Source of the DNA: Flavisolibacter sp.
Lineage (GTDB): Bacteria; Bacteroidota; Bacteroidia; Chitinophagales; Chitinophagaceae
Direction of reading: 5' to 3'
Assembly (NCBI GenBank): GCA_035554655.1
Contig: DATMIF010000004.1
Location: 8,922 to 72,921 of the forward strand
DNA: 64,000 bases
In this document: piece after piece, positions 23,911-59,652 of the stretch
Layout: each line of letters begins with the position of its first letter
Position numbering within the stretch: position 1 is the first letter of the stretch
Made by a program: the position numbers and the translations under genes
Notes under the pieces: generated by a model
What the model was told of the DNA's origin: nothing
Seen by the model: the letters and a program-made list of their open reading frames with translations, nothing else
Database searches by the model: none

Positions 23911-23937
23911 CAGTCTCTTTGTTTAAAATCCGTCAGT

Positions 23938-23980
23938 GGTTTTTATTGGAAGTTTTTTCTTTTCAGTTTTAGATATTTTG
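23938..23980 (+). promoter_or_regulatory. Promoter with the shared 20-bp motif (copy 1), upstream of the RraA-like/enolase/MFS/ALDH operon
   Basis: ggtttttattggaagttttt lies at 23938-23957. A -7-like box TATTTTG lies at 23974-23980, starting 17 nt past the end of the 20-mer. The ATG is 102 nt from the motif start. Confidence 0.6.
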
Positions 23981-24039
23981 TATCCTGTAGTGTTAACCGC
24001 ATTCTTAAAATTATAGTCACTACTAAAACCACTTGCAAT

Positions 24040-24969: not shown

Positions 24970-25028
24970 TAAAACAATCATGCATTGGCAAATAACAATT
25001 ATCCTTCTTTAACTGCAAAACAATCACC

Positions 25029-26525: not shown

Positions 26526-26563
26526 GGAAAATTTAGACGCTCCTGCTTTGACAAAAGAATTTT

Positions 26564-27850: not shown

Positions 27851-27881
27851 TTCATTTATTTTGCTCATCAAAATTTATTTC

Positions 27882-29492
27882 ATGATCTCAGGATATAATT
27901 TAGTCGGGTTCGAAAAGCAAGCTTCAGGTGAAAAAAAATTACATTCATTCAGCACGGTTCTGAAAAATAATTTGCCCGGAGAGTTTGTTATAGCGACGGA
28001 TAGTGAAATTCAAACTGCAGTTGAAAAAGCAACGACTGCTTTTGAAGTCTACAGGCAAACATCATTTATCGAAAGAGCGAATTTTTTGGATGTAATTGCA
28101 GACGAGATCATGCAAATAGGAGATGAGTTGATCCAGAGAGCTCATCTTGAAAGCGGCCTGCCTGAAGCAAGAATAACCGGCGAACGGGGGAGAACAGTTG
28201 GACAATTGAAACTCTTTGCTTCTCTTTTGCGTGAAGGTTCATTTGTTGAAGCCATTATTGATACGGCATTGCCAGATCGAAAACCTTTGCCTCGTTCCGA
28301 CTTACGCTTAATGCTGCAACCTATCGGCCCGGTAGCTGTTTTTGCGGCAAGCAATTTTCCGTTGGCCTTTTCAACTGCAGGTGGCGATACTGCTTCGGGA
28401 CTTGCTGCGGGTTGTCCCGTAATTGTAAAAGCACATAGTTCTCATTTGGGAACAAATGAACTGGTGGCAACTGCTATCATTTCTGCAGCACAAAAGTGTA
28501 ACATGCCTGATGGCGTTTTTTCTTCGTTAATTGGCGAGGGATCACAACTGGGACAACAATTAGTAAAACATCCACAAATAAAAGCCGTTGGCTTTACAGG
28601 TTCTTTCCGTGCGGGAATGTCCCTGTTGAAAGCATCTGTTAATGAAAGAGAAGAGCCCATTCCTGTATATGCAGAAATGAGCAGCATTAATCCTGTTCTT
28701 GTTCTTCCAAATAAAATCAAACAAGATATTGATACTGTAGTTGCACAACTTACTGCTTCTATCACTCTTGGTGTCGGGCAATTTTGTACCAATCCAGGGT
28801 TATTATTTGTTGTAAAAGATGAAAACACAGAAGCTTTCATTCAGAAGTTAGCCGGATCGTTACAGCAGGTACAACCAGCAATCATGTTGAATCAAACTAT
28901 TTGTGCCGCTTATTACAAAGAACGCCAACATTTGCTAGAGCAGGAAGGTGTAACTGCTTCCTGGGTTGGTGACGATACCAAGGCGGATTACAAAGGCAGC
29001 GCATTACTTGCCCAAACAGAAGCAAAGACTTTTATTCAAAACACGGACTTGCAAAACGAAGTGTTTGGACCTACATCTTTAGTAGTTATTTGTGAAGATG
29101 AAAAAGAGTTACAATCTGCATTAAAATCATTGCATGGACAATTAACCGGAACCGTCATTGGCACTTCAAATGATTTTAGCCAATTCAAAAATTGTATCGA
29201 CATTTTAATATCAAGAGTTGGAAGAGTAATTTATAATGGTGTTCCTACAGGAGTTGAAGTAAGTCATGCGATGATGCATGGCGGGCCTTTTCCTGCAACG
29301 ACATTTGCTCATTTTACGTCGGTCGGTACCGAAGCTATCAAACGTTTCTTACGTCCTGTATGTTACCAGGATTGTCCCCAGGAATTTTTGCCTGATGCAT
29401 TGAAAGATGTAAATCCGCTTCGTACTATGCGAAAGGTAAACGGAGAACTAACACGGGATGCTGTGCAAAAGATGGAAGCAATTCCTCAATAA
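27882..29492 (+). CDS. NAD(P)+ aldehyde dehydrogenase, alpha-ketoglutaric semialdehyde dehydrogenase (KGSADH)-like
   Basis: ALDH catalytic motifs are present: YAEMSSINPV (Glu) and GVGQFCTNPG (Cys). The length and N-terminal pattern match KGSADH-type enzymes. The start was placed at the ATG at 27882; the ORF-track start at 27861 is a TTG. Confidence 0.8.
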   Translation: MISGYNLVGFEKQASGEKKLHSFSTVLKNNLPGEFVIATDSEIQTAVEKATTAFEVYRQTSFIERANFLDVIADEIMQIGDELIQRAHLESGLPEARITGERGRTVGQLKLFASLLREGSFVEAIIDTALPDRKPLPRSDLRLMLQPIGPVAVFAASNFPLAFSTAGGDTASGLAAGCPVIVKAHSSHLGTNELVATAIISAAQKCNMPDGVFSSLIGEGSQLGQQLVKHPQIKAVGFTGSFRAGMSLLKASVNEREEPIPVYAEMSSINPVLVLPNKIKQDIDTVVAQLTASITLGVGQFCTNPGLLFVVKDENTEAFIQKLAGSLQQVQPAIMLNQTICAAYYKERQHLLEQEGVTASWVGDDTKADYKGSALLAQTEAKTFIQNTDLQNEVFGPTSLVVICEDEKELQSALKSLHGQLTGTVIGTSNDFSQFKNCIDILISRVGRVIYNGVPTGVEVSHAMMHGGPFPATTFAHFTSVGTEAIKRFLRPVCYQDCPQEFLPDALKDVNPLRTMRKVNGELTRDAVQKMEAIPQ

Positions 29493-30107: not shown

Positions 30108-30346
30108 ATTGTGACATTTTGCATTCTTAAATTAATTGCGATTTCGTGACACGATAATAAATTAAACCTCCAATGAAGAGCCACAATGTGAACCGGATTT
30201 TCATGTCGAATAAATTTTAGTAAAAAAACAAAGAAAATTAAAAATAAGAGAAGCTGAAGCAAAAAATGTGCAATTAAATCCGACGATAAATTCTACACCC
30301 CTGATAAAATTGCCTGGATTGTAACTTTCTATGACTGCATTTTTTA

Positions 30347-32596: not shown

Positions 32597-33871
32597 TTAC
32601 GCAAAGAAAGGCACCTCCGGTGTTGCGTATTTTTTCAAGCCTTCTTCATTAATTTCGACACCAATTCCCGGTTTGTCCGATACAACCAGAAACCCTTTTT
32701 CAATGAATGGCTTGTCATATTTGACGATCTCTTTCCATTTTGGTTCTGTATCGCTTAATGTTTGCCATTCAAGAATATGAAAATTTGGTACCGATGCGCA
32801 GACATGTGCTGATGCCATTGCTCCAAGAAATGAACCAACCATATGTGGTGAAAAAGGTGTGTAGTAGGCGTTCGCAAGATTAGCAATACGTTGTCCTTCA
32901 CCAAGTCCTCCGCATTTTTGAAGATCGGGCATGATGATATCAATAGCTGCTTCGGACAACAACCTAGTATATCCATATGTCAGGTAGAAATTTTCTCCTC
33001 CGCAAATGGGTGTGCTGGTTTCCTGTGTGATGGTTTTATAAACGTCAATATTATCAGCAGGAACAGGTTCTTCAAGCCACATCAGGTTCAATGGCTCCAT
33101 CACCTTTGCTACTTTTCTTCCGGTTGGTGCGTCGTAGCGTCCATGCATGTCAACGCAAATATCAATGTGAGGTCCTACTGCTTTGCGAACCGCTTCAATG
33201 GAATTGTACATTCTTTCAATTTCGGCATTGCTTGCCGTCCAGTTCCACCTGTCATATTTGTTTGGATCAGTTGCCGAGTCAATATCAAACTTAATGGCAG
33301 TATAACCTCTTGCAACTGCATCCATACCTGCTTTTGCATAATCTTCGGGTTTGGGATTCCTCACTGCATATAATTCGGTATCGCAATACACTCTTACTTT
33401 ATCCCGAAACTTTCCACCTAATAATTGATAGACAGGTAAGCCTAATGCTTTCCCGCATAAATCCCAGAGCGCAGCATCAAATGCACTCAGCACTGCTACA
33501 TACATTCCTGATTGAGCGCCACCAAAAAAGGCTTGCTTGCGAAATTGCTCAAAGATGACGTTTGGAGATAATGGACTTCTTCCATTTAATTGTTTTCCTA
33601 ATCGTTGAACCAAATAATAAGTTCCGCCTATGGCATCCACAGCTTCACCATAACCTACAATATCCTGGTTGGTATAAATTTTTACGAATAATCCGCCACC
33701 TGAGTAGGCGCATTTGACGTCAGTAATTTTTAAATCTGATGGTGCAGATGGTTTGGATGTTTTTTCTATTGCATGTTCGAGTCCGCGTCCATATGTTTTA
33801 GATAAAGATGCAAACGGAGCCAATGCTGCTGCTATAGCTGTCTTTGTAACGAACGATCTTCTTGTCGACAT
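32597..33871 (-). CDS. Enolase-superfamily enzyme (MR/MLE family, acid-sugar dehydratase-like) with a Tat signal; paralog of 25029-26525
   Basis: MSTRRSFVTKTAIAAALAPFASL is a twin-arginine signal. It shares SAPSDLKITD with the paralog. Motifs AALWDLCGK, CVDMHGRY, LMWLEEPVP, CGGENFY and DIIMPDLQKCGG are present. Confidence 0.85.
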   Translation of the reverse strand: MSTRRSFVTKTAIAAALAPFASLSKTYGRGLEHAIEKTSKPSAPSDLKITDVKCAYSGGGLFVKIYTNQDIVGYGEAVDAIGGTYYLVQRLGKQLNGRSPLSPNVIFEQFRKQAFFGGAQSGMYVAVLSAFDAALWDLCGKALGLPVYQLLGGKFRDKVRVYCDTELYAVRNPKPEDYAKAGMDAVARGYTAIKFDIDSATDPNKYDRWNWTASNAEIERMYNSIEAVRKAVGPHIDICVDMHGRYDAPTGRKVAKVMEPLNLMWLEEPVPADNIDVYKTITQETSTPICGGENFYLTYGYTRLLSEAAIDIIMPDLQKCGGLGEGQRIANLANAYYTPFSPHMVGSFLGAMASAHVCASVPNFHILEWQTLSDTEPKWKEIVKYDKPFIEKGFLVVSDKPGIGVEINEEGLKKYATPEVPFFA

Positions 33872-33931
33872 AAACAGTATTTTGAGGGTGAAAAGAAGTT
33901 TGAGTTGATTTTTGTTTTTAGTCAGTATTTA

Positions 33932-34888
33932 TTACCATGTTCTGTCTTTCAAATAATTTTGAATCGTTTCTTTTGGAACGGGCAATTCATTAATGTGGTC
34001 ATTCAACCACTTTGAAAAATCTTTTTCAATATCGTCCGTCCATCTTGCATCAATTTGTCCCGCTGTGTATTTTCCTTCTCTCAATCGCTGGTGTCCGAAC
34101 AAATCTCTCAACCGAACAATTTCTGAAGTGATCACAACTTTTTCTGCTAGCTGTGGAGGAATAAAAACAACAACACCCAATTTGCCTAATACAACATCAC
34201 CCGGCATAACAGTTACAGTTCTTATGCGTGTTGGATGATTAATACCAACAATCATTGTGGTGAGATCCCTGCTTTGCCCTGCACCAGGATTGTGATAAGA
34301 AGGATCGTAGCTTGTATAAAAGGAAGTAAAGCCGCCAATTTCTTTCAGGCCTTCCAAATCTCTTATGGCGCCGTCATACACAATTCCATTTCCTGTCCTT
34401 GCATAAATAGCATTACCTATATTGTCACCAATAGTTGGACCGTTTCTTTTAGCGCCAAATTGGTCGGCAACATATACATCTCCTTTTTGTAGCATTTCCA
34501 CAGCCCAAACATTTTGAGCTCTTCTTCCTTCTTTCTTTCCAAAAGAGTCAATCACACTCCAAACATCCGGGCGGCCAGGCATGAACGTTGCTGTTACTGC
34601 ACGGCCAACGAGCACACTGTCAGGATTGATTGTTTCCCATCCTTCGGCAATCTGATACCTGTAACCTGCATTCGTGAGAACAGCCCACGCTTCTTCAACA
34701 CTTACAGCTTTCATTCTTCTAATGATATCATCAGGCACTTTAGGGCGACCATCGGGAAAACGTTCTCCTTTCCATTCATGTGTTAATGCAATGAGTTCTT
34801 CTTTGCTTATTTGCACATGCTGTGCTATTGCCTGGTTAAAGACAAATGCTATTGTAAATAGGGATAGCAAACGTTTCATCATTAACAT
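33932..34888 (-). CDS. Exported RraA-family protein; paralog of 24040-24969
   Basis: Signal peptide MKRLLSLFTIAFVFNQAIAQ. It shares WKGERFPDGRPKV with the paralog. The GAIRD motif and VMPGDVVLGKLGVVVFIP are present. Confidence 0.85.
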   Translation of the reverse strand: MLMMKRLLSLFTIAFVFNQAIAQHVQISKEELIALTHEWKGERFPDGRPKVPDDIIRRMKAVSVEEAWAVLTNAGYRYQIAEGWETINPDSVLVGRAVTATFMPGRPDVWSVIDSFGKKEGRRAQNVWAVEMLQKGDVYVADQFGAKRNGPTIGDNIGNAIYARTGNGIVYDGAIRDLEGLKEIGGFTSFYTSYDPSYHNPGAGQSRDLTTMIVGINHPTRIRTVTVMPGDVVLGKLGVVVFIPPQLAEKVVITSEIVRLRDLFGHQRLREGKYTAGQIDARWTDDIEKDFSKWLNDHINELPVPKETIQNYLKDRTW

Positions 34889-36071: not shown

Positions 36072-37598
36072 TTAGTTGTCCTGTTGTAGATCAGCAATGG
36101 CCTCAAATTCATCAAACAGCTTCACGCTCAATCTTTCAAAAATTGAGTAATGCTTCATATAAACACTATGGAGTTCTTTGCTAGGAGTAAAACTGTCCGG
36201 CAGTTTCACCGTTTCCGCAGCCTCATCTAAATTTTTATACAAGCCAATCTCAGTTGCACTTAGTAAAAAAGATCCAAAAGCAACACTGTCGGAACCCGAC
36301 CCCTGCTTAATATGGACAGGCTTGTTGAAAACATCCGCCATCAACTGCGTCCAGAAAGGATAAGAAGCAAAGGTCCCGTTTGCAGAAAGCCTTTTAAACG
36401 AGCGATGCTCTTCCAAAGTTTTTCCGATGCTATAAATAGCATATAATATTCCTTCAATTGTGGCACGAACGAAATGCTGCTGTTCGTGTTTGATGTTTAA
36501 TCCGAAATAGACACCTCTTGCATTCGCATTCCACATCGGTGCCCTTTCACCTTGCAGGTAAGGAAGAAAAATCAATCCATCAGATCCTGGCGCAACCTTT
36601 GCTGCATCAGCGATCAGGTTTTCAATACAGTCTTCAAGGTCAAATGCTTTTTTGAAATCTCCGAATTGCTTTGCGTACCATTCAAACACAGCGCCTGCAT
36701 TGTTCGTTGGGCCACCGGATATATAGTGATCTTCAGTCAGCAGGTAGTTAAACAACCGCTGCTTTTCGTCCTGCAAAACTTCTTTGCCTACTACTCTTAC
36801 GGCTCCGCTTTCTTCAAGTGTAACCGTAGCTTTTCCATCTCCCCACACGCCGGCGCCCAGCGTAGCCATGCAACCATCGCTTGATCCCACAAGTAATTTC
36901 ACTTTGTCATGTAAGCCCAGAGAAGTCTGATATTCTTTTTTCAATTTCTTTGGAGCATAAAAAACAGAAACAAGATCAGCCAGTTTTTCTTTCTCTATGC
37001 CTGCGTGTTTCAATGCATTCTCTTCCCATTTTATTGTGCGGATATTCAACATGCCCGTTGCAGAAGCCATGCTATAATCAACTATGTATTCACCTGTCAG
37101 TTGCTGTATGATGTAAGTTTTGATGGAGAGAAATTTTTGTGCGGCATTGAAACGTTGCTTATCATTATTTTTTAGCCAGGTTATTTTGTTGAGTGGAGAC
37201 ATTGCATGTATTGGTGTGCCGGTGGTTTTATACAATGACTTTCCGAGCGAAGAATTTTTAAGATCATCAGCTTCCTTTTTTGCACGATTATCTGACCACA
37301 CCATTGCATAGCCAAGAGGAACGCCATTCTTGTCAATTGGCAAAACACTATGCATTGCCGAACTAAAACAAATACAAACAACTTTGTACTTGCGGGGATG
37401 AATTTTTTCATTCAAAAAATTCTTTAGGATATAAAGCATTGTGATGAAGATCTGTTCGGGATCTTGTTCGCTATAATCAGGTTTAACATGAAAAGTGGGA
37501 TAGGATCCCTTTGAAGATCCAAGCATGTTGCCTTTTAAATCGAATGCTACCACTCTTATGGCGCCTGTTCCTATTTCGATGGTAATAACACAATCCAT
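36072..37598 (-). CDS. FGGY-family carbohydrate kinase (gluconokinase-like)
   Basis: IEIGTGAIRVVAFD (phosphate-1) and VGSSDGCMATLGAG motifs are present. The start was set at the ATG at 37598, which avoids overlap with the AraC gene. Confidence 0.8.
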   Translation of the reverse strand: MDCVITIEIGTGAIRVVAFDLKGNMLGSSKGSYPTFHVKPDYSEQDPEQIFITMLYILKNFLNEKIHPRKYKVVCICFSSAMHSVLPIDKNGVPLGYAMVWSDNRAKKEADDLKNSSLGKSLYKTTGTPIHAMSPLNKITWLKNNDKQRFNAAQKFLSIKTYIIQQLTGEYIVDYSMASATGMLNIRTIKWEENALKHAGIEKEKLADLVSVFYAPKKLKKEYQTSLGLHDKVKLLVGSSDGCMATLGAGVWGDGKATVTLEESGAVRVVGKEVLQDEKQRLFNYLLTEDHYISGGPTNNAGAVFEWYAKQFGDFKKAFDLEDCIENLIADAAKVAPGSDGLIFLPYLQGERAPMWNANARGVYFGLNIKHEQQHFVRATIEGILYAIYSIGKTLEEHRSFKRLSANGTFASYPFWTQLMADVFNKPVHIKQGSGSDSVAFGSFLLSATEIGLYKNLDEAAETVKLPDSFTPSKELHSVYMKHYSIFERLSVKLFDEFEAIADLQQDN

Positions 37599-37611
37599 TT
37601 TCAATAATTTT

Positions 37612-38502
37612 TTAGTCGGTCGTTGGTATATTTTTCTTTCTAAACTCACTGGGCGTATAGCCCGTTAGCTTTTTGAATGTAGTTGCAAAGTGTTGTGATG
37701 AATAGAATCCGATATCCAGCGCAATGTCTGTAACATGGACATCCGGACGTTTCAACAATTTGATCGCTTCGGAAATTCTAATGTTGATCAGGTAATTCAA
37801 TGGTGAAAAGCCCGTATAGCTTTTTACTTTTTCTGAAAAGGCAGTTGTTCCTAATCCAACCAAGGCTGCCATTTCTTCTACGGTCCATTGATGTGAAAGG
37901 TTTTCGCGGAGCGCTTGTTCCAACTTCATAAATGTTTGAGGAAAATCCCTTCTCGAATTATTCTGCCTTGTTAGCTGTCTTGCTGATAAAATAAAAAGTT
38001 CATCTATTAATTGGTTGATGCGTGCGGTATATCCAATTTCCTGGTTGATGAATTCATTCTGCATGCATTGAAATATTGAACCAGCTTCTTTTATTTTAGA
38101 AAGAATGGGGCAGTTGTTGAGCATGAGAATTTTTCCAATCGTCCTGCATTCGCTGTCTGCAAGATGACTCCATTTGCCCATTGCCATATTTCCCGTTTTT
38201 TCCAGTTGTTGTAACTCAAGGTGCAGCCATGAAACAGTTCCGATATCAAGCAAATCTTTTTCGCCGCCGAAACTTTGTCCAGGTAAAATAATAGCCAGGT
38301 CCTCGGGATAAAGTATGTGATGCTCATTATTAATGATCCAGTCAAAACGGCCATCAAGTACATAATAAAAACGGAGAAATTCTGAAGCTTCTTTTTTTAA
38401 AGAATCAAACTGTATAGTGTTGGTTTTCCTTAGTGCGAATTCGATAATATGAGGGAAGGCATGAAGCTCTTTGTTATCTTTTTTTAAGAGGAACTGGTTC
38501 AT
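37612..38502 (-). CDS. AraC-family transcriptional regulator (cupin sensor + HTH_18)
   Basis: The C-terminal double HTH is present (WTVEEMAALVGLGTTAFSEKVK...VTDIALDIGFYSSQHFATTFKKLTGYTPSEFR). It is divergent from the SusC promoter. Confidence 0.9.
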   Translation of the reverse strand: MNQFLLKKDNKELHAFPHIIEFALRKTNTIQFDSLKKEASEFLRFYYVLDGRFDWIINNEHHILYPEDLAIILPGQSFGGEKDLLDIGTVSWLHLELQQLEKTGNMAMGKWSHLADSECRTIGKILMLNNCPILSKIKEAGSIFQCMQNEFINQEIGYTARINQLIDELFILSARQLTRQNNSRRDFPQTFMKLEQALRENLSHQWTVEEMAALVGLGTTAFSEKVKSYTGFSPLNYLINIRISEAIKLLKRPDVHVTDIALDIGFYSSQHFATTFKKLTGYTPSEFRKKNIPTTD

Positions 38503-38577
38503 GCAATCGTTAGGTTTCTAAATTCCGAAAACGATATTACTAATAAAATCTAAACAGCTTGTACAATATCCTTCGCT

Positions 38578-38620
38578 GTTTTTTATTGGAAGTTTTTTGT
38601 TCAAAACTTCAGATACTTTG
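38578..38620 (+). promoter_or_regulatory. Promoter with the shared 20-bp motif (copy 2), in the AraC-SusC divergent region
   Basis: gttttttattggaagttttt at 38578-38597 matches copy 1 at 19/20 positions. The -7-like box TACTTTG lies at 38614-38620 with the same spacing. The ATG is 103 nt from the motif start. Further positional identity to copy 1 extends for about 45 bp. Confidence 0.6.
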
Positions 38621-38680
38621 TTATAGCATAAAAACCCTTACTGGTTTTGAGCGGTATTAAATAACAAACCCCTTGCTATT

Positions 38681-41600
38681 ATGAGAAGTAGACTACGGCA
38701 GTTGTCTGCCCCATTTAACTATCTGTTCGTTTTAGTTTCCCTTTTACTTTTCTCTTCTGCAGCTTTTTCACAATCAGTTTCCGGAACTGTTACTGACGGT
38801 ACCAAGCCAATAGGCCAGGTAACGATACAGGTTAAAGGCACATCGAGGACAGCCCAAACTGATGATGCAGGAAAGTACACCATCAAAGCTTCAGGCAACG
38901 ACGTGTTGATTTTTTCTTCTGTTGGTTTTTTAAAACAGGAACTGGCTGTCAATGGCAAACAAACACTGGATGTTGTTTTGTTTACAGACGCAAAAAACAT
39001 GGAAGATGTTGTAGTAACAGCATTAGGCATCAGTAAAAGAACAAGAGGACTGGGTTACTCCGCAACAAGCGTGAAGCCGGATGAACTAACGGAGAACCGC
39101 ACTACAAATCCGATTAATGCATTGGAAGGGAAAGTTGCCGGCGTAAACATTACAAGCCTGGGCACAGGTCCCGGTGGGTCTTCTAAGGTCCGTATCAGGG
39201 GGCAATCGGCAATTACAGTTGGCGACAACGGGCCGCTTATTGTTGTTAATGGAGTTCCCATCAATAACGGAAGTAATACTGCAAACTTCAATAATGGTAC
39301 GGTCGGTGTTTCAGGAGGAGGTGCTTATGCAGATGGGGGGGATAACTATTCAAGTATCAATCCTGATGATATTGAAAGCATGACTGTTTTGAAAGGAGCA
39401 CCTGCTGCAGCCCTCTATGGTTATCGTGCAGCCAATGGTGTAATTATGATCACAACAAAAACAAAAGGAAAGGGCAGGGGTATCGGTGTATCTCTCAATT
39501 CGAATTACACCAATGAGACTCCGTTGGATTACACAGACTATCAAAAAGTATATGGACAAGGTGAGAATGGTGTGCGTCCTACAACAATAAATCCAACTTC
39601 CGGCGAATGGTCTTTTGGAGAAAAGATACAGGCGGGCATGACCAATATTCTTTTTAATAATCTGACGGTTCCGTACGTAGCTCAAGGCAGTCGCATAAAA
39701 GAATTTTACCGGCATGGACAGAACTTTTCCAATACCGTTACTTTGGAAAGTTCCACAGATAAAGGAGGATTGCATTTATCATTAAATAATACAGACAATT
39801 ACGGCATTACGCCCAATAATAAATTCAATCGAAAGAACATGAACCTTGGTTTCAATCATAATTTGTCGAACCAGTTCAGTTTCGGTGGAAACATTAATTA
39901 TTCAAGAGAGTTTAATCGCAACCCGCCAAACATTGCCAACCAGGATAATTCTATTCCAACGACACTAATGGCTTTGGCCAACACGATGCCTTTGAGTGTA
40001 CTTAAAGAAAATATGTACAATGCCCAGGGAAACGAATATGTCTTCTCCAGGTTTATGAATCGTACCAATCCTTACTGGGTATTGGAAAACCAGTTTCATA
40101 ATATCAAACGCGACAGGCTTTACGGAAATGTTTTTGCAAAATATAACATTCTTCCATGGTGGTGGGTGCAGGGCCGCTTCGCTCAAGACTTTTACTCACG
40201 TGATGAAGATCTAAACAATTTCCCGACAGGACATGCATCCCGTTCTCCTGCACCTGCAGGTTTCGTAAACGGCGTTTACACGCAGGAGTCCCGCCGTTTC
40301 AGGGAGACAAATCTTGACTTCTTGAGCAGTGCAAACAAAACTTTTGGAGATATGGATGTAACGCTTACTGTTGGTGGTAATGAAATGCGCAGGCGCACTG
40401 ATATCAATAATGTACAGGTAACGGACTTTGTAGTAAAAGGTTTGTACACAGTTCAAAATGGAAGAGCCAAAAATCCTGTCTATGCGCTTGAAGAAAAAGG
40501 GGTGAACTCGCTTTATGGTTCTGCTGATCTTTCATGGAACAAAACATTCTATTTAACGGGTTCTGTAAGAAAAGACTGGTTCTCAACTTTATCTGCTGAA
40601 AATAATGGTATACTGTATCCTTCTGTTTCTGGTTCCTACGTTTTTTCGGAGTCACTTAAAGTTCCATGGTTAACATTTGGTAAGGTACGTCTTGGTTATG
40701 CTGAAGTAGGAAGCGATGCAGATCTTCAGCCATATGCAGATCAACTTTTTTATAGTGTAAATGCTAACACTATAAACAATCCTGCGGGTACTGCAGTAAC
40801 TGTTGGAAGCAGCGGGGCAGTTCTTCCGAATAAGAATTTGAAACCAATGCGGATAAAAGAAACGGAGGCAGGTCTTGAATTAAAATTGTTTCAGAACAGG
40901 GTAAATCTTGATGTAGCGGTTTATAAAAAGATAACACTGGATCAAATCGTTTCTGTTCAAACATCAGACGCTTCGGGTTTTACAAGTACATTAATCAACA
41001 GCGGTGAAAGTCAGAACAAGGGTTTTGAAGGATTGTTGAATCTCATTCCTGTTCAGACAAAGACTTTCAGGTGGGAATTCACTGCAAATACTGCATATAA
41101 TAAAACCCGGGTAAATAAAATTATTACAGACAAAGCCGGGGAAAAACTAACAACAGGTTCTCATCCATTTAATGGAGAGGTTAGAATGGTAGTAGGACAG
41201 GAGATAGGCCAGATTGCGGGTTTCGGTTATGCACGAGATGCAAAAGGACAAATGGTCTTCCAGGCTAATGGACTTCCTCTTCGCAGTCCCGATTTTATTT
41301 TATTCGGAAGTGGTTTGCCAAAATGGACCGGTGGTTTCCTAAACAATTTTGCTTACAGAGGGCTAAATCTTTCTATATTGGTTGATTACAAATTAGGTAA
41401 CAAAATGCTATCGGGAACAAACTTCAACGCAGTGCGGCATGGCTTGCATATGATGACGCTAGAAGGACGTGAAACCGGTTTTGTCACCGGCAATGGTGTA
41501 AATCAATCTGGAGGTACAAACACTGCAAAAGCAGCTGTACAAACATATTGGGAACATCTGCGTTCGCAGCAAATTATAGAACCTGTGATTTATGACGGTG

Positions 41601-41842
41601 GCTTTTGGAAACTTCGCCAGGTGAGTTTAGGATATGATTTCACAAAACTTCTTCCTGGTAAATGGCCTATTAAAGGCGTCAAGCTTGATTTAGTTGCCAA
41701 TAATGTTTTACTCATTAAAAAATGGGTGGACAATATCGATCCGGAAACAGTGGGCTATGGTGTAGACGGCATGGTAGGCCTTGAATCTCCCGGCGTTCCA
41801 ACAACAAGAAGCCTCGGTGTGAATTTGAACCTTAAATTTTAA
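38681..41842 (+). CDS. SusC/RagA-family TonB-dependent outer-membrane transporter
   Basis: Signal peptide. CarboxypepD_reg-like domain (VSGTVTDG..GKYTIKA). Plug start DVVVTALGISKRTRGLGYS. The C-terminus ends in aromatic F. No STN (anti-sigma signalling) domain was seen. Confidence 0.95.
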   Translation: MRSRLRQLSAPFNYLFVLVSLLLFSSAAFSQSVSGTVTDGTKPIGQVTIQVKGTSRTAQTDDAGKYTIKASGNDVLIFSSVGFLKQELAVNGKQTLDVVLFTDAKNMEDVVVTALGISKRTRGLGYSATSVKPDELTENRTTNPINALEGKVAGVNITSLGTGPGGSSKVRIRGQSAITVGDNGPLIVVNGVPINNGSNTANFNNGTVGVSGGGAYADGGDNYSSINPDDIESMTVLKGAPAAALYGYRAANGVIMITTKTKGKGRGIGVSLNSNYTNETPLDYTDYQKVYGQGENGVRPTTINPTSGEWSFGEKIQAGMTNILFNNLTVPYVAQGSRIKEFYRHGQNFSNTVTLESSTDKGGLHLSLNNTDNYGITPNNKFNRKNMNLGFNHNLSNQFSFGGNINYSREFNRNPPNIANQDNSIPTTLMALANTMPLSVLKENMYNAQGNEYVFSRFMNRTNPYWVLENQFHNIKRDRLYGNVFAKYNILPWWWVQGRFAQDFYSRDEDLNNFPTGHASRSPAPAGFVNGVYTQESRRFRETNLDFLSSANKTFGDMDVTLTVGGNEMRRRTDINNVQVTDFVVKGLYTVQNGRAKNPVYALEEKGVNSLYGSADLSWNKTFYLTGSVRKDWFSTLSAENNGILYPSVSGSYVFSESLKVPWLTFGKVRLGYAEVGSDADLQPYADQLFYSVNANTINNPAGTAVTVGSSGAVLPNKNLKPMRIKETEAGLELKLFQNRVNLDVAVYKKITLDQIVSVQTSDASGFTSTLINSGESQNKGFEGLLNLIPVQTKTFRWEFTANTAYNKTRVNKIITDKAGEKLTTGSHPFNGEVRMVVGQEIGQIAGFGYARDAKGQMVFQANGLPLRSPDFILFGSGLPKWTGGFLNNFAYRGLNLSILVDYKLGNKMLSGTNFNAVRHGLHMMTLEGRETGFVTGNGVNQSGGTNTAKAAVQTYWEHLRSQQIIEPVIYDGGFWKLRQVSLGYDFTKLLPGKWPIKGVKLDLVANNVLLIKKWVDNIDPETVGYGVDGMVGLESPGVPTTRSLGVNLNLKF

Positions 41843-43392
41843 TGAAGTCAATTATGAAAAAAATATTCAGATATAGTTTGGTGTTCGTTGTAACAGCAGT
41901 CGCAATTTCGTGTACTAAGAAGCTTGAAGAAATAAATGTCAATAAAGTAAGCCCTACCTCACTTGATCCTGCCTTGCTGTTAAACAATGCCATTATCAAT
42001 ACATCCTTCCCAACCAAAACAGTTGTGTACGAGATGTCTATCGTTCAACAAATGGTTACACCTAATGGCGGTGTACTTGCGGGGGGTAATTTCAACCAGG
42101 ATAGTCGCGATGTAACGAACGCACCATTATGGGCAGGCTATTATCAAAACGTAATTAAGTATACACACGATGCAATTGTAAAAACAAAAGACGTTGCCGC
42201 AAGATCGAACCTTTACAATATGGCACGTATCTGGCAGGCCTATGCATTCATGGTGCTTACAGACACTTATGGTGCTATACCTTATACAGAAGGCGGCGCA
42301 GGATTAACAGATCAAATATTCTTTCCTAAGTACGATCAGCAGCAGGATATTTATCCAAAGCTTATCCAGGAGTTGACAGAGGCATCGGCTGCGTTAAGTA
42401 CCTCGGCAGCTGTGGAAGCTTCTGATATTCTCTACGCGGGAAATATAACTAAGTGGAAAAAGTTTGGATACTCTTTGCTTTTGAGAGTTGGAATGCGTTT
42501 AAGCAAAGTAGATCCTGCAAAAGCTCAAACAATAGTACAAGCTGCATTCACGGGGGGAGTAATAACAGACAATGCAGATAATGCCTATATGAGGCATGAT
42601 GCCAATTATCAAAGTCCTATAGGTGTGATGTTGAACGGTACAGAAGGTGCGAACTGGTATCTTGTAAAATCTTTTGTAGACACTTTGAAGAACAACAATG
42701 ATCCCCGTTTATCTGCTATTGCCATTCGTTACAAAGGTGCTACCTCAGGGCCAGGACAAACAGTAGACAAGGGATCAACTGCCCCTGCAGATCAAATTGG
42801 TATGCCGATGGGTTATGATAACGGGACCATTATAGCCCGAGTTACTTCCGACGGTCTTGCAAGTTTTTACGACTATAGCCAGTTGGATAGAAGAAGGATG
42901 GGAAAGACATCTGCTCCAATATTTTTTGTAACGGCTGCTCAAACAAATTTGTTATTGGCTGAAGCAAGATTCAGAGGTTGGATTACATCGGGTACGGCTG
43001 CACAATATTTTGCCGATGGCATAAAAGCTCACATGGATCAATTAGCTACTTATGACGCAGGTTCGGCCATTGCACCAGCCGCAAGGGATGCTTATATAGC
43101 TGCTCATCCGTTGATAGCAGGAAGAGAACTGGAACAGATCAATACGCAATATTGGATCGCTTCATTTTTAAATGGACCCGAAGCCTTTGCCAATTTCAGA
43201 AGATCCGGGTATCCTGCGCTAGCACCTAATCCATACGGACAGCCCAACAATCCTGATGTGCCGAACGGAACATTTATCAGGAGAATTGGCTACCCAACCT
43301 CAGAGCTATCGGTAAATAGCGCTAATGTAAATGCAGCAATAGCAACCATGGGCCCTGATAAATTGAGTACAAAACTGTGGTGGGACAAATAA
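41842..43392 (+). CDS. SusD/RagB-family nutrient-binding outer-membrane lipoprotein
   Basis: TAATG overlap with the SusC gene. Lipobox AISC. The C-terminal RRSGYPAL motif is typical of SusD-like proteins. An alternative start lies at 41854. Confidence 0.9.
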   Translation: MKSIMKKIFRYSLVFVVTAVAISCTKKLEEINVNKVSPTSLDPALLLNNAIINTSFPTKTVVYEMSIVQQMVTPNGGVLAGGNFNQDSRDVTNAPLWAGYYQNVIKYTHDAIVKTKDVAARSNLYNMARIWQAYAFMVLTDTYGAIPYTEGGAGLTDQIFFPKYDQQQDIYPKLIQELTEASAALSTSAAVEASDILYAGNITKWKKFGYSLLLRVGMRLSKVDPAKAQTIVQAAFTGGVITDNADNAYMRHDANYQSPIGVMLNGTEGANWYLVKSFVDTLKNNNDPRLSAIAIRYKGATSGPGQTVDKGSTAPADQIGMPMGYDNGTIIARVTSDGLASFYDYSQLDRRRMGKTSAPIFFVTAAQTNLLLAEARFRGWITSGTAAQYFADGIKAHMDQLATYDAGSAIAPAARDAYIAAHPLIAGRELEQINTQYWIASFLNGPEAFANFRRSGYPALAPNPYGQPNNPDVPNGTFIRRIGYPTSELSVNSANVNAAIATMGPDKLSTKLWWDK

Positions 43393-43554
43393 CGGACCTT
43401 AATATAATCTCTCAATGTAAGCAGTCAGACCTTATGTTTTCACGAGGGTCTTTTAAATCAACGGAATCTTGCTAAAAAATTTCTATTGTTGCAGCAATTA
43501 TTATTAAGATTTATTGATACAATGTGATTGAAAAGTGTTAATTAAGCGGACTCA

Positions 43555-45294
43555 ATGAAAAAAACTACAAGTCATAATTCTTCAAATAAACTTCGCAGCG
43601 CCGATTGGTTTGGTAAAGATGACAAGATGGGCTTTGTTCATCGTTCCTGGCTGCGCAACCAGGGATATCCGGACGATTATTTCAGAGGTAGACCCGTAAT
43701 AGGTATATGCAACACCTGGAGTGAATTGACTCCGTGCAATGGTCACCTTCGCGATTTTGCAGAAGTAGTGAAACGTGGTGTAATTGAAGCAGGTGGATTC
43801 CCTTTGGAGTTTCCTGTGACATCACTTGGAGAAACGATTATGCGGCCAACAACCATGTTGTTTCGCAATTTGGCGGCGATGGATACTGAAGAAACCATTC
43901 GTGCCAATCCAATTGATGGTGTTGTTTTACTTACAGGTTGTGATAAAACCACTCCTTCAACATTAATGGGGGCATGTAGCGTTGATCTTCCGACCATCGT
44001 TGTTCCCGGCGGACCGATGCTTAACGGAAGATTTAAGGGAGAATGTCTCGGCTCCGGATCATTCAACTGGATGGTGAAAGAAAAAATGCTGGTTGAGAAT
44101 TATTCTGCGGAAGATATTTTGGAAGCCGAAATAGGAGTGGCAAGAAGTGCAGGACATTGCATGACAATGGGAACTGCATCCACTATGGCTTGCATGGTAG
44201 AAGCTCTCGGTTTAACATTGCCGGGTGCGGCAGCAATTCCTGCAGTTGATTCAAGAAAGAAAGTAATGGCCCAACTATCGGGAAGAAGAATTGTAGAAAT
44301 GGTAAAGGAAGATCTTAAGCTTTCAAAGATTCTGACAAAAGAAGCTTTTGAAAATTCAATTGTTGTTAATGCCGGGGTTGGAGGATCTACAAATTTTATT
44401 ATTCATCTTATAGCAATTGCAGGAAGAATAGGCATTGAATTAAAGCTTGAAGAATTTGACAGCATCGGCAGTAAAATCCCCCTGCTTGTCAATTTAAAAC
44501 CTTCAGGCAAATACCTGATGGAAGATTTCTTTTACGCAGGGGGACTTCCTGTTGTAATTAAAGAGCTAAAGAAGTATTTGCATGCCGGTGCAATTACTGT
44601 AAATGGAAGGACTATTGCTGAAAACAATACTACTCCAATTTGTTACAACCAGGATGTTATTGCAACCATTGATAATCCCTTACAAGAAACCGCCGGTATT
44701 GCAGTGTTAAAAGGAAATCTTTGTGAAAACGGTGCGGTCATCAAACCTTCGGCAGCAACAAAAGAATTGATGCAGCATCGTGGTCCTGCAGTTGTGTTTG
44801 AAACCATAGAAGATTATCATGAAAGAATCGATGATCCTGATTTGGAAATAGATGAAAACTCAGTGATCGTTTTAAAGGGTGTGGGCCCTGTTGGCTACCC
44901 CGGCATGCCTGAAGTTGGTAATGTTGATCTTCCTGAAAAATTATTACGCAAAGGAATTAAAGACATGATTCGCATTTCGGATGGAAGAATGAGCGGCACC
45001 GCTGCAGGAACAGTAGTGCTTCATGTTTCCCCCGAATCGGCGGTAGGAGGAACACTTGCATTGGTGAAGAATGGAGATATGATTGAACTTGATGTTGAAA
45101 AAAGAAGACTGCATTTGGATGTCAGTGATGAAGAACTTCAAAAAAGAAGAAGTGAATGGAAAGCTCCGCAGCCAATGGCGCAGAGAGGTTATGCAAAAAT
45201 TTATATTGATCATGTGCAGCAGGCTCACCTCGGCGCCGACTTTGATATCCTAAATGGTGGATCAGATGGAGAAGTTACAAGAGATTTGCACTGA
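43555..45294 (+). CDS. IlvD/Edd-family dehydratase, L-arabinonate/D-xylonate dehydratase-like
   Basis: LRSADWFGKDDKMGFVHRSWLRNQGYP..PVIGICNTWSELTPCNGHL is typical of the pentonate-dehydratase clade. The Fe-S motif GCDKTTPS and the ISDGRMSG motif are present. No signal peptide. Confidence 0.85.
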   Translation: MKKTTSHNSSNKLRSADWFGKDDKMGFVHRSWLRNQGYPDDYFRGRPVIGICNTWSELTPCNGHLRDFAEVVKRGVIEAGGFPLEFPVTSLGETIMRPTTMLFRNLAAMDTEETIRANPIDGVVLLTGCDKTTPSTLMGACSVDLPTIVVPGGPMLNGRFKGECLGSGSFNWMVKEKMLVENYSAEDILEAEIGVARSAGHCMTMGTASTMACMVEALGLTLPGAAAIPAVDSRKKVMAQLSGRRIVEMVKEDLKLSKILTKEAFENSIVVNAGVGGSTNFIIHLIAIAGRIGIELKLEEFDSIGSKIPLLVNLKPSGKYLMEDFFYAGGLPVVIKELKKYLHAGAITVNGRTIAENNTTPICYNQDVIATIDNPLQETAGIAVLKGNLCENGAVIKPSAATKELMQHRGPAVVFETIEDYHERIDDPDLEIDENSVIVLKGVGPVGYPGMPEVGNVDLPEKLLRKGIKDMIRISDGRMSGTAAGTVVLHVSPESAVGGTLALVKNGDMIELDVEKRRLHLDVSDEELQKRRSEWKAPQPMAQRGYAKIYIDHVQQAHLGADFDILNGGSDGEVTRDLH

Positions 45295-45320
45295 TGATAT
45301 AATTAAAGGAAAATTTAAGC

Positions 45321-46148
45321 ATGAAAATATACAAGACAAAACAAGGAATTGCGGTTGAAAATGAAAATGGATTTTATTTACTCGATGAAGATTGGGAAAC
45401 ATTTATAAATGATGATGCTATTCTTCATAAGGTGAAAGAAAAGATCAAAGGCCTTTCACTCTCTCAAACTAACTCAATCGAAAACATACTTGCTCCCATT
45501 GGAAGCCGACAGGAACTGTGGGCATGTGGCGTTACTTATTTAAGAAGTAAAATTGGAAGGCAGGAAGAAAGTAAAGATGCAGGCGGAGGTGATTTTTATG
45601 CAAGAGTATATGAAGCAGAAAGGCCCGAAGTTTTTTTTAAAGCAAATCCTCACCGGGTAGTTGGTCATAATGATAAAGTAAGAATAAGGAAAGACTCCAC
45701 ATGGGATGTTCCTGAACCTGAACTTACACTGGTTGTTTCTTCGTCCGGAAAAATTATTGGTTACACTATCGGCAACGATATTAGCAGCCGTAGCATTGAA
45801 GGAGAAAATCCACTCTATCTGCCACAGGCAAAAACCTATGATGCCTGTGCGGCACTTGGTCCATGCATTTATCTTACCGAAGAACCGCTTGACAGAAATA
45901 CAACTATCCACCTGGAAATAAACAGAGACAGAGAAACCGTTTTTAACGGAAGTATCGCCATCTCGCAAATAAAAAGATCATTTGGCGAATTGGTGTCTTT
46001 TGCTTTCAGGGAATGTTCTTTTCCTTATGGCTGTTTAATTATGACAGGAACTGGCATTGTTCCTGAAAATGATTTTACGCTTAAGAGCGGCGATGAAATA
46101 AAAATTTCTATTGACAGAATCGGAACCCTGGTAAATGAAGTAGAGTAA
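45321..46148 (+). CDS. Fumarylacetoacetate hydrolase (FAH)-family protein, 2-keto-3-deoxy-pentonate dehydratase-like
   Basis: The size, FAH-type C-terminal half ([29 protein letters not shown]) and position directly after a pentonate-type dehydratase support the call. Confidence 0.7.
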
Positions 46149-46238
46149 CTGGCGCAGGTTTATTTTTTGATCAAAGACTCTCAATTATTTTTCAAGCGAT
46201 AGCTTTGTCTATCCCTTCATTCAGTTGAAGAAATCTTT

Positions 46239-47438
46239 ATGGTAGGAACACTCAAAAAATTTTCGATCTTTTCTTTAACTGTTATGGCGATAACAAGCTT
46301 GACTCCTTTGATTTCGCTTGCACAACAAAAAGATTCAAAGTCAACTTCCGCAAATAAAAAAGAAAAAACACTAAAAGAAGTTTACAAAGATGCATTCCTG
46401 GTGGGTGTAGCCGTTAATCCTTCAATTACCTCCGGTGCGGACAAACCCTCCCAGAATATTGTACTCAAACATTTCAACGCCATTACTGTTGAAAATGTAA
46501 TGAAGGCAGCATTGATCAACCCTCAACCCGGTGTTTACAACTGGGGACCTGCGGATGATTATGTGGCCTTTGGTGAAAAAAATAAAATGTTTATTGTAGG
46601 TCACACACTTGTTTGGCATAACCAGGTTCCTGCGTGGTTCTTTACCAATGCAGAAGGAAAGCCAAACACAAAAGAAGAACAGATTGAGCGATTGCGAAGC
46701 CACATACAGACTGTCGCCAGGAGATATGTTGGCCGCGTAAACGCCTGGGATGTGGTGAATGAAGTGATGGGTGAAGACGGAAATTATCGCTCTACAAGTT
46801 GGGTCAACGCCGTTGGTAATGGCGATACGTTAGTAAAGTATGCTTTCAAATTTGCTGTCCAATATGCGCCGAATACAGAATTATACTACAACGATTTCAA
46901 TGCATGGCGTCCGTCGAAAAGGGATGGTATTGTCCGCATGATAAAAATGCTGCAAAAAGAAGGGATACGCATTGATGGTATTGGTATGCAGGGACACTGG
47001 GGATTAAACTATCCAAAAACAAAATACATTGAAGACGCCATTGATGCTTATGCTGCATGTGGTGTAAAAGTGATGATCACTGAACTGGACGTAGATGTTC
47101 TTCCTCTGACGAAAGAAGGACAGATCATCGGGCAGGGCATGGCGGACAAACAATTTCAGTTAGTAGAATTCAAAACGTTTCTAGATCCATATCAAAAAGG
47201 TTTGCCCGATAGCATGCAAAAACTGCTAGCCCTCCGTTACGCTGAGCTATTTTCGATTTTTTATAAGAGGAGGGACAAAATCGCAAGAGTAACGTTGTGG
47301 GGTGTGCATGACGGAATGAATTGGAAGAACGATTATCCCGTTCCGGGTAGAACAAATTATCCCTTATTGTGGGATAGGCAACACAGACCTAAACCTGCTT
47401 TTTATGCTGTACTGAACGTGCCTTCTCAATCTAAATAG
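46239..47438 (+). CDS. GH10 endo-1,4-beta-xylanase
   Basis: WDVVNEV (acid/base Glu) and ITELDV (nucleophile Glu) motifs are present. Signal peptide present. A candidate -7 box TAGCTTTG lies at 46200-46207. Confidence 0.9.
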   Translation: MVGTLKKFSIFSLTVMAITSLTPLISLAQQKDSKSTSANKKEKTLKEVYKDAFLVGVAVNPSITSGADKPSQNIVLKHFNAITVENVMKAALINPQPGVYNWGPADDYVAFGEKNKMFIVGHTLVWHNQVPAWFFTNAEGKPNTKEEQIERLRSHIQTVARRYVGRVNAWDVVNEVMGEDGNYRSTSWVNAVGNGDTLVKYAFKFAVQYAPNTELYYNDFNAWRPSKRDGIVRMIKMLQKEGIRIDGIGMQGHWGLNYPKTKYIEDAIDAYAACGVKVMITELDVDVLPLTKEGQIIGQGMADKQFQLVEFKTFLDPYQKGLPDSMQKLLALRYAELFSIFYKRRDKIARVTLWGVHDGMNWKNDYPVPGRTNYPLLWDRQHRPKPAFYAVLNVPSQSK

Positions 47439-47719: not shown

Positions 47720-48526
47720 ATGGCAAATGCCTATTCCGGGCATATGACGGCAAATCACCGACGGGAAAAAATTCTCGAACTGATCAAAGAGGATGGATCG
47801 GCAAAGGTGGTTGAGCTTGCAAAAATCTTTAAGGTTACTGAACCAACTATTCGCCAGGACCTGGAAAAATTAGAAAAAGATGAACTCGTTATCCGTGAGC
47901 ATGGCGGTGCGTATTTGAAGAACGTTGACATGAATGTGCGTTCCGTATCCTTAGCCCACCAAGAGCATTTAGATAAAAAAGAAATCATTGCCAGGAAATG
48001 CCTGGAGTTTCTCGAACCCGGTGATACCATCATCTTGGACTCCGGTTCAACAACTACAGAAATAGCAAAAAAACTTAAAGGCTTTAAGCAACTAACGGTC
48101 ATCACCAATGCCTTAAATATTGCATTAATGCTTGGTGCCGAACCAGGCATTGAAGTCCTTGTTACAGGGGGTGAGTTTAAACCACCAACGTTATCGTTAA
48201 CCGGACAAAAAGCAGCAGATTTTTTTAGTGGCATTAATGCACAAAAATTGTTTTTAGCAACTGCGGGCATTTCACTAAAGTCGGGTTTAACCTATCCAAG
48301 CATAAGTGATCTTGTTGTAAAGAAAGCAATGATCGATGCCTCGGAAGTTACCTATCTCGTTGCCGACTCAACCAAAATTGGTAAAAGCGCCTTTGCGAGC
48401 CTCGGAGCTTTATCCCTCATCAATTATATCATTACCGATGAAGGGATAGAGGACAAACACAAGGAAATTTTTCTCGATAACGAAATTGAATTGATCATAG
48501 CAACCGAAAAAAATGGAAGTAAATAA
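47720..48526 (+). CDS. DeoR/GlpR-family transcriptional regulator
   Basis: The N-terminal HTH (REKILELIKEDGSAKVVELAKIFKVTEPTIRQDLEKL) and a DeoR C-terminal sugar-phosphate sensor domain are present. An alternative start lies at 47744. Confidence 0.9.
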   Translation: MANAYSGHMTANHRREKILELIKEDGSAKVVELAKIFKVTEPTIRQDLEKLEKDELVIREHGGAYLKNVDMNVRSVSLAHQEHLDKKEIIARKCLEFLEPGDTIILDSGSTTTEIAKKLKGFKQLTVITNALNIALMLGAEPGIEVLVTGGEFKPPTLSLTGQKAADFFSGINAQKLFLATAGISLKSGLTYPSISDLVVKKAMIDASEVTYLVADSTKIGKSAFASLGALSLINYIITDEGIEDKHKEIFLDNEIELIIATEKNGSK

Positions 48527-49940: not shown

Positions 49941-49976
49941 TTATGAAATGTTTTTAAGAATCTAATCAGAGAAGAG

Positions 49977-50807: not shown

Positions 50808-50826
50808 AGAGCATAACAAAGGTCAA

Positions 50827-51813: not shown

Positions 51814-51847
51814 CAAAGCAAACTCAAAAAGCGAATAGCGATTAATA

Positions 51848-54740: not shown

Positions 54741-54955
54741 ATCTATAATTCTTAAAGCAACCGCTTCTACACATAATAATTCCCATCTTATCTTCTGCAC
54801 ATAGATTTTTAAACATTTCGTGCATTAAAATAATTATTTGTGCTATTGATTGGCACTGCCTTGCTGGAATTTTAGCCTGTAAGCTCCAATAACTGAAACA
54901 GGAGGTTTGTAAGGTGGTAAAAAGTTATTAACCCGTTTGTTCAGAATTCTTCAAT

Positions 54956-55150: not shown

Positions 55151-56293
<1,143 letters not shown>

Positions 56294-57397: not shown

Positions 57398-59652
<2,255 letters not shown>

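Follow-up and report, generated by a model that had tools for sequence, protein, structure and literature searches.

The 64,000-nucleotide stretch of the Flavisolibacter sp. genome that was analysed here (contig DATMIF010000004.1, positions 8,922 to 72,921; hereafter the window) is, according to Pfam and NCBIfam annotation, a hemicellulose-utilisation region of a Bacteroidota genome, and it contains three copies of a 41-bp bipartite DNA element. The three copies are probably binding sites of one transcription factor, most probably the putatively cupin-type AraC/XylS regulator that is encoded at 37612–38502, and each of them would be located in an activator-dependent promoter. Based on the comparison of orthologous loci, the element is a genuine and strongly conserved cis-regulatory element that defines a family-wide xylan/pentose regulon. 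The adjacent AraC-family protein very probably controls this regulon, and the shared site very probably switches on sugar-uptake, pentose-oxidation and esterase genes together.

The first-pass annotation of the window had drawn attention to a 20-mer, GGTTTTTATTGGAAGTTTTT, the positions of which were reproduced in a pattern search: exact copies are present at 23938–23957 and 54956–54975, and a copy with one mismatch (19/20) at 38578–38597, all on the plus strand. No further copy had been seen by eye, and none was found in the 64-kb window when up to three mismatches were allowed. In dinucleotide-preserving shuffles, the mean number of 20-mer matches was 0.07, and three or more matches were obtained in none of the 100 shuffles. 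When the three regions are aligned, it is apparent that the likeness runs ~20 bp further upstream of the 20-mer, as cTTTGTTCAAAATCCTTCAnTG, and that it ends at the edges of the element, beyond which the spacers differ. The shared motif that had been proposed is real, but both the alignment and the profile of 77 sites that is described below give it a length of 41 bp and not 20 bp, and the 20-mer is the promoter-proximal half of this bipartite element.

A 41-column position weight matrix was built from AraC-linked orthologous sites, independently of the window copies. In a scan of the window with this matrix, the three copies, all on the plus strand, scored 51.8 bits (copy 1, 23918–23958), 58.2 bits (copy 2, 38558–38598) and 41.6 bits (copy 3, 54936–54976), the runner-up position scored 8.3 bits and the maximum of 20 shuffled windows was 7.8 bits. 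Scores of 42–58 bits at three sites, against no more than 8.3 bits elsewhere, indicate that the window holds exactly three sites. Copy 1 is located in the 129-nt gap between a GFO/xylose-dehydrogenase-like gene and an RraA-like gene, copy 2 in the 178 bp that separate the divergent AraC and SusC genes, and copy 3 upstream of an esterase/GH8 array. In copy 2, the distal block of the element is TTGTACAATATCCTTCGCTG (38559–38578, plus strand) and the proximal block is TTTTATTGGAAGTTTTT (38581–38597, plus strand). A weak candidate for a fourth site (30261–30301, minus strand), found in the 239-nt gap that precedes the DUF386 gene, was rejected because its 8.3 bits are no better than the shuffle maximum; the match is possibly a decayed site or a product of chance. 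An RNA element was also rejected, since a search of the whole window against Rfam gave no match at gathering score and the element lies upstream of the predicted transcription start.

The consensus over 77 distinct sites is tTGTAyAAwATyCwtCrcyG-nn-tTTTwTTGGAAGTTTtt, in which T4, A7, A10, C16 and T29 are invariant and G3, A8, T26, T28, G31, A33 and G34 are nearly invariant. The information-content profile of these sites contains two conserved blocks at positions 1–20 and 23–39 (in short form, TGTAyAAwATyC..C...G for the distal block and TTwTTGGAAGTTT for the proximal block). Their centres are ~20 bp apart, so both blocks are placed on one face of the helix. The 20-mer of the window corresponds to the proximal block with a few added Ts of low conservation. 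The reading of it as two direct GTTTTT half-sites 13 bp apart was not borne out, as the upstream GTTTTT has low information content across the 77 sites. Comparison of the two blocks with each other by means of the weight matrix gave a weak inverted match (TAyAAwA/TwTTGGA, centred at position 18; this symmetry can also be written CAAwA...TwTTG) and no clear direct repeat. In our reading of the profile, each block appears to have two clusters of conserved positions ~10 bp apart, as expected for one dual helix-turn-helix (HTH) domain per block, an arrangement for which the MarA/AraC–DNA complexes provide the textbook basis. Two other assignments were considered and rejected. For a sigma-54 promoter (GG-N10-GC), no GC was seen by eye at the required distance in the three copies, and for a CRP/FNR-like palindrome in the distal block, the spacing measured by hand is TGTAy-N8-TCRC and not N6.

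Each copy of the element is followed by a −7-type promoter box at a fixed distance. The boxes TATTTTG (23974), TACTTTG (38614) and TACCTTG (54992) each start 17 nt after the end of the 20-mer, and copies 1 and 2 are located 102 nt and 103 nt from their start codons (24040 and 38681, respectively), all as the first-pass annotation had it. In their full form, the boxes are TATTTTGT at 23974–23981 for copy 1, TACTTTGT at 38614–38621 for copy 2 and TACCTTGT at 54992–54999 for copy 3, all on the plus strand, with predicted transcription starts at ~23986, ~38626 and ~55004, respectively. Measured from the element end to the T of the TAyyTTG box, the spacing is 14–16 nt in 63 of the 77 sites (mode 15), and nearly every matrix match across the loci analysed has a gene start 35–200 nt downstream or runs into the contig end. 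The earlier description of the boxes as Bacteroidetes −7-like elements holds for their position and spacing but not for their form: the three copies and the consensus all read TAnnTTGY, which is shorter by one nucleotide than TAnnTTTG, the canonical −7 box of Bacteroidota. A Bacteroidota sigma-A promoter consists of the −7 box TAnnTTTG and a −33 TTG/TTTG ~19–21 nt upstream. The promoters described here do not have this form: the box is short and, on direct reading, no TTG or TTTG is present at the usual −33 distance in the three promoters. As none of the copies has a −33 box, these promoters seem to require a factor that binds over the −33 region. In a genome-wide map of transcription start sites in Flavobacterium psychrophilum, TAnnTTGY constitutes a class termed SM5 that is located at −12 to −5; mutagenesis showed it to be a working promoter element in that species, and the authors judged an alternative sigma factor to be ‘most likely’ for this class (PMC9723704). 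With the register taken from this box position (PMC9723704), the 41-bp element would span approximately −68 to −28 relative to the predicted starts. The leader that is predicted for copy 3 is unusually long (~160 nt, 55004–55162, before the esterase ATG at 55163) and contains a 37-codon open reading frame (ORF) at 55037–55150 (MRIRKRQTLLLNPFQ...).

The element is conserved beside orthologs of the regulator in loci that were not selected by the motif. Metagenome contigs were scanned with an alignment of five AraC orthologs, so that selection was made by protein and independently of the motif, and 80 loci with 61–88% identity were obtained (individual loci are denoted by the letter L and a number). 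The element is present in ~70 of the ~76 loci with enough upstream DNA, in the AraC/SusC divergent region and in the same orientation. Of the 80 loci, 52 contain the 8-mer ATTGGAAG within the 260 nt that precede the AraC ortholog, in every case on the strand that faces SusC (in one of the 52, L171, the occurrence is off-site and not in the element's own box), and most of the remaining loci contain one-base variants of it, e.g. TTTGGAAG, ATTAGAAG and TTTGGTAG. When sites were anchored on the 8-mer alone, the distal block 20 bp upstream was conserved equally with the proximal block. In L126, L138 and L141, the proximal boxes are visibly degraded (e.g. TTTTAATAGAAC, TTATTGAAGG and TTATTTGAAATGCC) and there is no recognisable −7 box behind them, which suggests site decay or promoter turnover in some lineages. 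The conservation in ~70 AraC-selected loci, together with the fixed spacing to the box, lends in silico support to the earlier proposal that the motif is a shared activator or operator site over the −33 region and serves the adjacent AraC regulator.

Species-representative genomes were also scanned with the exact 18-mer TTTTTATTGGAAGTTTTT, which yielded at least 120 loci; among the matches listed, most are chance matches in AT-rich DNA. Only nine of the loci among these listed matches passed the 41-bp matrix. In these nine, the extended pattern is complete, from the upstream block to the downstream box, and all of them are upstream of related genes. Eight of the nine are from Chitinophagaceae (Flavisolibacter, Ferruginibacter, Lacibacter, Sediminibacterium, Niastella and a Chitinophagaceae metagenome-assembled genome), and the ninth, L042, is labelled only ‘uncultured Bacteroidetes bacterium’. 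In four of the nine, the AraC/FGGY-kinase genes diverge from SusC as in the window, with AraC proteins that are 55–63% identical. In the other five, the element precedes the gene of an SMP-30-like lipoprotein (three loci), a GH43/GH51/esterase cluster (one locus, with a GH43 that shares 80% identity with window ORF 18390) or a cluster of carboxylesterase and esterase genes (one locus, L042, in which the similar element is placed in the manner of window copy 3). The exact 18-mer was also observed in Flavobacterium and Flavobacteriales (L004, L005, L019, L029, L036, L069, L080, L084 and L092). Its context in Flavobacterium is the 3′ end of a conserved sequence, ...GA(T/A)TTTTTATTGGAAGTTTTTCA(G/A)GA(G/A)CA...TAA, which by eye looks like the 3′ end of a coding sequence. 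Because the 18-mer occurs in this conserved segment, it is not diagnostic on its own, and only the 41-bp pattern is.

The secondary targets of the element are conserved across genomes. Extra copies precede a second SusC and genes for an SMP-30-like lactonase, GH3, GH43, FAH, RraA-like proteins and esterases, and the SMP-30-like lactonase lipoprotein is under the element in at least 9 loci. This SMP-30/gluconolactonase-like lipoprotein of ~350 aa (FTEGPAVDK.GNVFFTDQPNDKIYKW...) was observed in L128, L129, L131, L135, L140, L145, L185, L083, L102 and L113. It is the most frequent secondary target and is often located between the AraC gene and the second SusC; no close homolog of it was found among the window ORFs. 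A third route to the element was through orthologs of the RraA-like protein, with which further loci were fetched. In L203/L204 (88% identity, gene order of the window), the RraA gene is preceded by a copy of 57.6 bits at a distance of 80 nt, and in L201, L202 and L208/L209 the RraA-like and enolase genes are positioned behind SusC–SusD and are served by the single copy in the AraC–SusC divergent region. The RraA/enolase module is therefore under the motif in four of six independent genomes, through two gene arrangements. The recurrence of the element before the same functional gene set elsewhere supports, in silico, the view that the RraA/enolase operon, the polysaccharide utilisation locus (PUL) and the esterase array of the window belong to one regulon.

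The candidate cognate regulator is a 296-aa protein of the AraC family (37612–38502, minus strand), which was analysed by Pfam, NCBIfam and PDB searches. Its C-terminal part contains the ~100-aa domain with two HTH motifs that is characteristic of the AraC/XylS family (PF00165, 5.1e-21, in two stretches; PF12833, 4.6e-20, residues 211–289). At its N-terminus, the match to Cupin_2 is weak (E = 0.013); for the window regulator and four orthologs together, Cupin_2 was matched by all five proteins (best 1.7e-5) and AraC_binding by four of the five (best 3e-6). The DNA-binding half is almost invariant among orthologs. All PDB matches are AraC-type DNA-binding domains, and the nearest solved relative is 12aw_A (E = 4e-13), the DNA-binding domain of a Bacteroides hybrid two-component system. 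The 2449 homologs of the regulator bear generic names only, and the closest of them, from Flavisolibacter and Chitinophagaceae assemblies, are called ‘AraC family transcriptional regulator’ or ‘helix-turn-helix’. The NCBIfam matches of the regulator include RhaS and AraC, but every one of these scores falls far short of its equivalog cut-off, which means that the regulator is not an ortholog of any named member. Copy 2 is located 55 nt from the start codon of the regulator (the median across orthologs is 81 nt), and with such proximity autoregulation of the divergent AraC–kinase operon is possible. It is speculative, however, as a consistent TAnnTTTG-like box was not found on the AraC strand across orthologs.

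A link between the regulator and the element is suggested by one case of covariation. In two AraC lineages, which are 56–58% identical to each other, GGAAG of the element is changed to GGTAG. Every element copy in L171 (sites at 8542, plus strand, and 6974, minus strand), L195 and L167/L168 carries GGTAG, including both sites of L171 and both of L195, and the AraC proteins of both lineages have the substitution T219A. Based on a manual alignment with MarA, this residue is presumably located at the start of the first recognition helix. At the level of sequence, the GGTAG/T219A covariation points to the AraC protein as the binder.

In the mechanism that we propose, the order of the promoter would be the 41-bp bipartite site (blocks of ~19 and ~17 bp), a spacer of 14–16 nt and the TAnnTTGY box. 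A dimer of the regulator would occupy the 41-bp site, with one DNA-binding domain on each block. Upon binding of an intracellular effector, the promoter-proximal subunit would replace the missing −33 contact, recruit RNA polymerase and activate transcription. The site has features of a class-II site: it is bipartite, falls within ~35–45 bp and has its blocks approximately two helical turns apart, and, as positioned by the predicted start, it reaches or overlaps the −35-equivalent with its proximal edge and keeps a fixed distance to the core promoter. The predicted placement (approximately −68 to −28, with no −33 box) thus fits a class-II AraC-type activator site. The content of the regulon, which covers xylan uptake, depolymerisation, de-esterification and an oxidative pentose route, makes xylose, arabinose, a short xylo-oligosaccharide or a pathway intermediate the candidate effectors. 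The oxidative route in the regulon would comprise a dehydrogenase, a lactonase, a pentonate dehydratase, an FAH-type dehydratase and a semialdehyde dehydrogenase.

Several observations weigh against activation of all of these genes by the adjacent AraC-family protein. Two different proteins could be involved, since neither block is recognisable as a repeat of the other, and conserved synteny with SusC confounds the evidence from the proximity of regulator and site. The covariation has a counter-example in L177, in which A219 occurs with GGAAG, and a protein–DNA mutual-information scan was dominated by phylogeny and clade structure. L205/206 and L207 (74–75% identity) hold RraA orthologs without the motif. 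No site was found at the window xylan genes GH67 (13969) or GH43 (5201, 6815 and 18390), and the GH43 ortholog of L100 has a site that the window GH43 does not, which implies that regulon membership is plastic. Furthermore, the SM5-type box leaves the RNA polymerase partner of these promoters uncertain. Dissimilar blocks and confounding synteny would also be expected if the element were a real operator of another, unlinked factor (a hybrid two-component system, a global carbon regulator or two proteins, one per block) and the adjacency of the AraC gene reflected the synteny of the AraC–kinase pair with SusCD. Hybrid two-component systems do control the xylan PULs of Bacteroides and Prevotella. 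We nevertheless consider such a factor unlikely, given that no other regulator gene is consistently near any copy, that the length, position and bipartite geometry of the site are those of AraC/XylS dimers, that the GGTAG variant tracks T219A in two lineages and that the distal block, measured by hand, misfits the CRP/FNR spacing.

A slightly smaller probability is given to the AraC-family protein binding as a repressor that occludes the −33 region until an inducer releases it. The site does overlap the region in which sigma would contact a −33 element, and copy 2 is within autorepression range of the AraC start (55 nt), but the three promoters have no TTG or TTTG at the −33 distance, and promoters of this kind would be weak unaided; moreover, cupin-type AraC/XylS proteins are overwhelmingly activators, with binding at about −35 to −75. 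We find it very improbable that the conserved block and the TAnnTTGY box form an extended promoter for an alternative sigma factor, with no transcription factor involved. This would agree with the separate class SM5 in F. psychrophilum and the alternative sigma factor that was suggested for it (PMC9723704). It is at odds, however, with the 41 conserved bp, which extend to about −68, far beyond any sigma −35 contact, and with the lack of a linked sigma or anti-sigma gene at any copy; SM5 promoters in F. psychrophilum serve unrelated genes (lipopolysaccharide, gliding), whereas the regulon described here is narrow and catabolic. The exact 20-mer shared by copies 1 and 3, and the chance occurrence of the 18-mer alone in many AT-rich genomes, including in a conserved and apparently coding Flavobacterium region, are what might be expected of a dispersed repeat, a mobile-element or duplication remnant without regulatory role, or a chance likeness. 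The likeness stops at the element edges and the spacers differ, however, and no shuffle reaches one fifth of the score. Above all, conservation is position-specific across orthologous loci with 61–88% identity, and orientation and spacing to the promoter box are strict, by which an origin of this kind is effectively refuted.

With the AraC-family protein as activator, the predicted regulon in the window would consist of three units, all on the plus strand. The transcription unit predicted behind copy 1 (24040–29492, gaps of no more than 60 nt) encodes the RraA-like protein, an enolase-superfamily protein (MR_MLE), an MFS transporter and an aldehyde dehydrogenase. The unit behind copy 2 (38681–47438) would contain SusC, SusD, an IlvD/Edd pentonate dehydratase (nearest NCBIfam model, L-arabinonate dehydratase), an FAH-family protein and a GH10 xylanase, the gene of which may have an additional promoter of its own. 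The unit behind copy 3 (55163–62910) would contain four esterases (one with CBM48), GH8 and a 640-aa double esterase. Just before copy 1, a GFO/IDH/MocA oxidoreductase is encoded at 22798–23910 on the plus strand (nearest model, D-xylose 1-dehydrogenase). On the minus strand, the AraC gene heads a string of genes for an FGGY kinase, an SBF transporter, a second RraA-like protein, a second enolase-superfamily protein, a glycosidase and DUF386.

The pair of RraA-like and enolase-superfamily genes is thus found twice in the window, at 24040–26525 (plus strand) and 32597–34888 (minus strand). Only the plus-strand pair has a 41-bp element of its own, and the other pair is part of the AraC-headed string. 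The RraA-like proteins of L034 and L054 are 72–73% identical to window ORF 24040 and 48–49% identical to ORF 33932, which indicates that the two window copies are diverged paralogs. The FGGY kinase (36072–37649, minus strand) was matched by the gluconokinase model TIGR01314 with 451 bits and by the xylulokinase model TIGR01312 with 276 bits, both below cut-off, and as the former outscores the latter, the xylulokinase label may be wrong. Its ORF, with a GTG start, shares 38 nt with the end of the AraC gene; given ortholog lengths of 505–519 aa, translation probably starts further downstream than this GTG. A separate cluster without the 41-bp element is located at 47720–53374 on the plus strand, between the PUL and the esterase array, and encodes a DeoR regulator, a fucose-isomerase-C-domain protein, the N and C halves of a split transketolase as two genes, and a second FGGY kinase. 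Presumably the cluster is a regulon of its own. Elsewhere, the ~1.8 kb between the DUF3124 gene and the GH43 gene (16606–18389) contain no ORF of at least 100 aa and short ORFs on both strands, with one 74-aa product that is ACT-domain-like by eye, and may represent decayed genes or an unannotated feature.

The regulation of PULs is understood mainly in gut Bacteroides, in which SusR, hybrid two-component systems and pairs of extracytoplasmic-function sigma and anti-sigma factors are involved. The PULs of soil and aquatic Bacteroidota often have small AraC-family genes beside them; no defined operator or regulon for such genes was found in open-access papers, and no description of the present motif or regulator was found in them either. 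Class-II activator sites are known for Escherichia coli AraC (araI1-I2), RhaS/RhaR and Pseudomonas XylS. Similar to AraC, RhaS and XylS, the regulator would combine an N-terminal cupin-like sensor/dimerisation domain with a C-terminal dual HTH, and the site is bipartite, ~40 bp long and positioned at the predicted −35-equivalent ahead of a sugar-catabolic operon, with the regulator gene oriented divergently. In contrast to these systems, the promoter is of a Bacteroidota type (−7 box TAnnTTGY, no −10/−35), the half-sites are not recognisable repeats, and a SusC/SusD PUL would be controlled.

For the hybrid two-component systems of Bacteroides, the predicted sites consist of two conserved boxes ~21 bp apart before susC-like genes (PMC3878776), and binding of a hybrid two-component system to susC promoters was demonstrated by electrophoretic mobility shift assay (PMC11253607). 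The regulator resembles these systems in the closest solved DNA-binding domain, in the bipartite sites and in the likely role in switching on a PUL. It differs from them in being a 296-aa protein without a periplasmic sensor, kinase or receiver, i.e. a cytoplasmic one-component regulator, which must sense an imported or intracellular molecule and not a periplasmic oligosaccharide. The known xylan/xylose regulators in Bacteroides are hybrid two-component systems and the NrtR-type XylR; XylR of Xanthomonas belongs to the LacI family, and XylR of E. coli and Vibrio combines a LacI-type sensor (periplasmic-binding-protein fold) with an AraC DNA-binding domain. A likely role in the induction of xylan/xylose genes and the sharing of one motif by several promoters are common to these proteins and the regulator described here. 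It differs from the described XylRs, however, either in the sensor, which would be a cupin and not a periplasmic-binding-protein fold, or in the whole protein family, and it has another motif. It looks like a non-orthologous replacement within Chitinophagaceae.

In summary, we lean somewhat towards a picture in which a one-component cupin–AraC regulator with a sharply defined 41-bp operator is the master switch of xylan and pentose use across Chitinophagaceae. Its role would be the one that belongs to hybrid two-component systems and the NrtR-type XylR in gut Bacteroides, and its target promoters would have a short TAnnTTGY box and no −33 element. The regulon prediction itself is solid and well defined, and it is unsurprising in principle and introduces no new principle. 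It provides a precise operator, testable base by base, a predicted promoter architecture and possibly a xylan- or xylose-inducible promoter/regulator pair for genetic tools in Chitinophagaceae. Across genomes, the predicted regulon ties xylan uptake (SusCD, GH10, GH3, GH43 and esterases) to an oxidative pentose route with a xylose-dehydrogenase-like GFO protein, lactonase, pentonate dehydratase, FAH and aldehyde dehydrogenase, and it offers a handle for the annotation of its genes. If the prediction is correct, shared control would give a xylan/pentose-linked role to the signal-peptide-bearing RraA-like/enolase-superfamily module and to the SMP-30-like lipoprotein.

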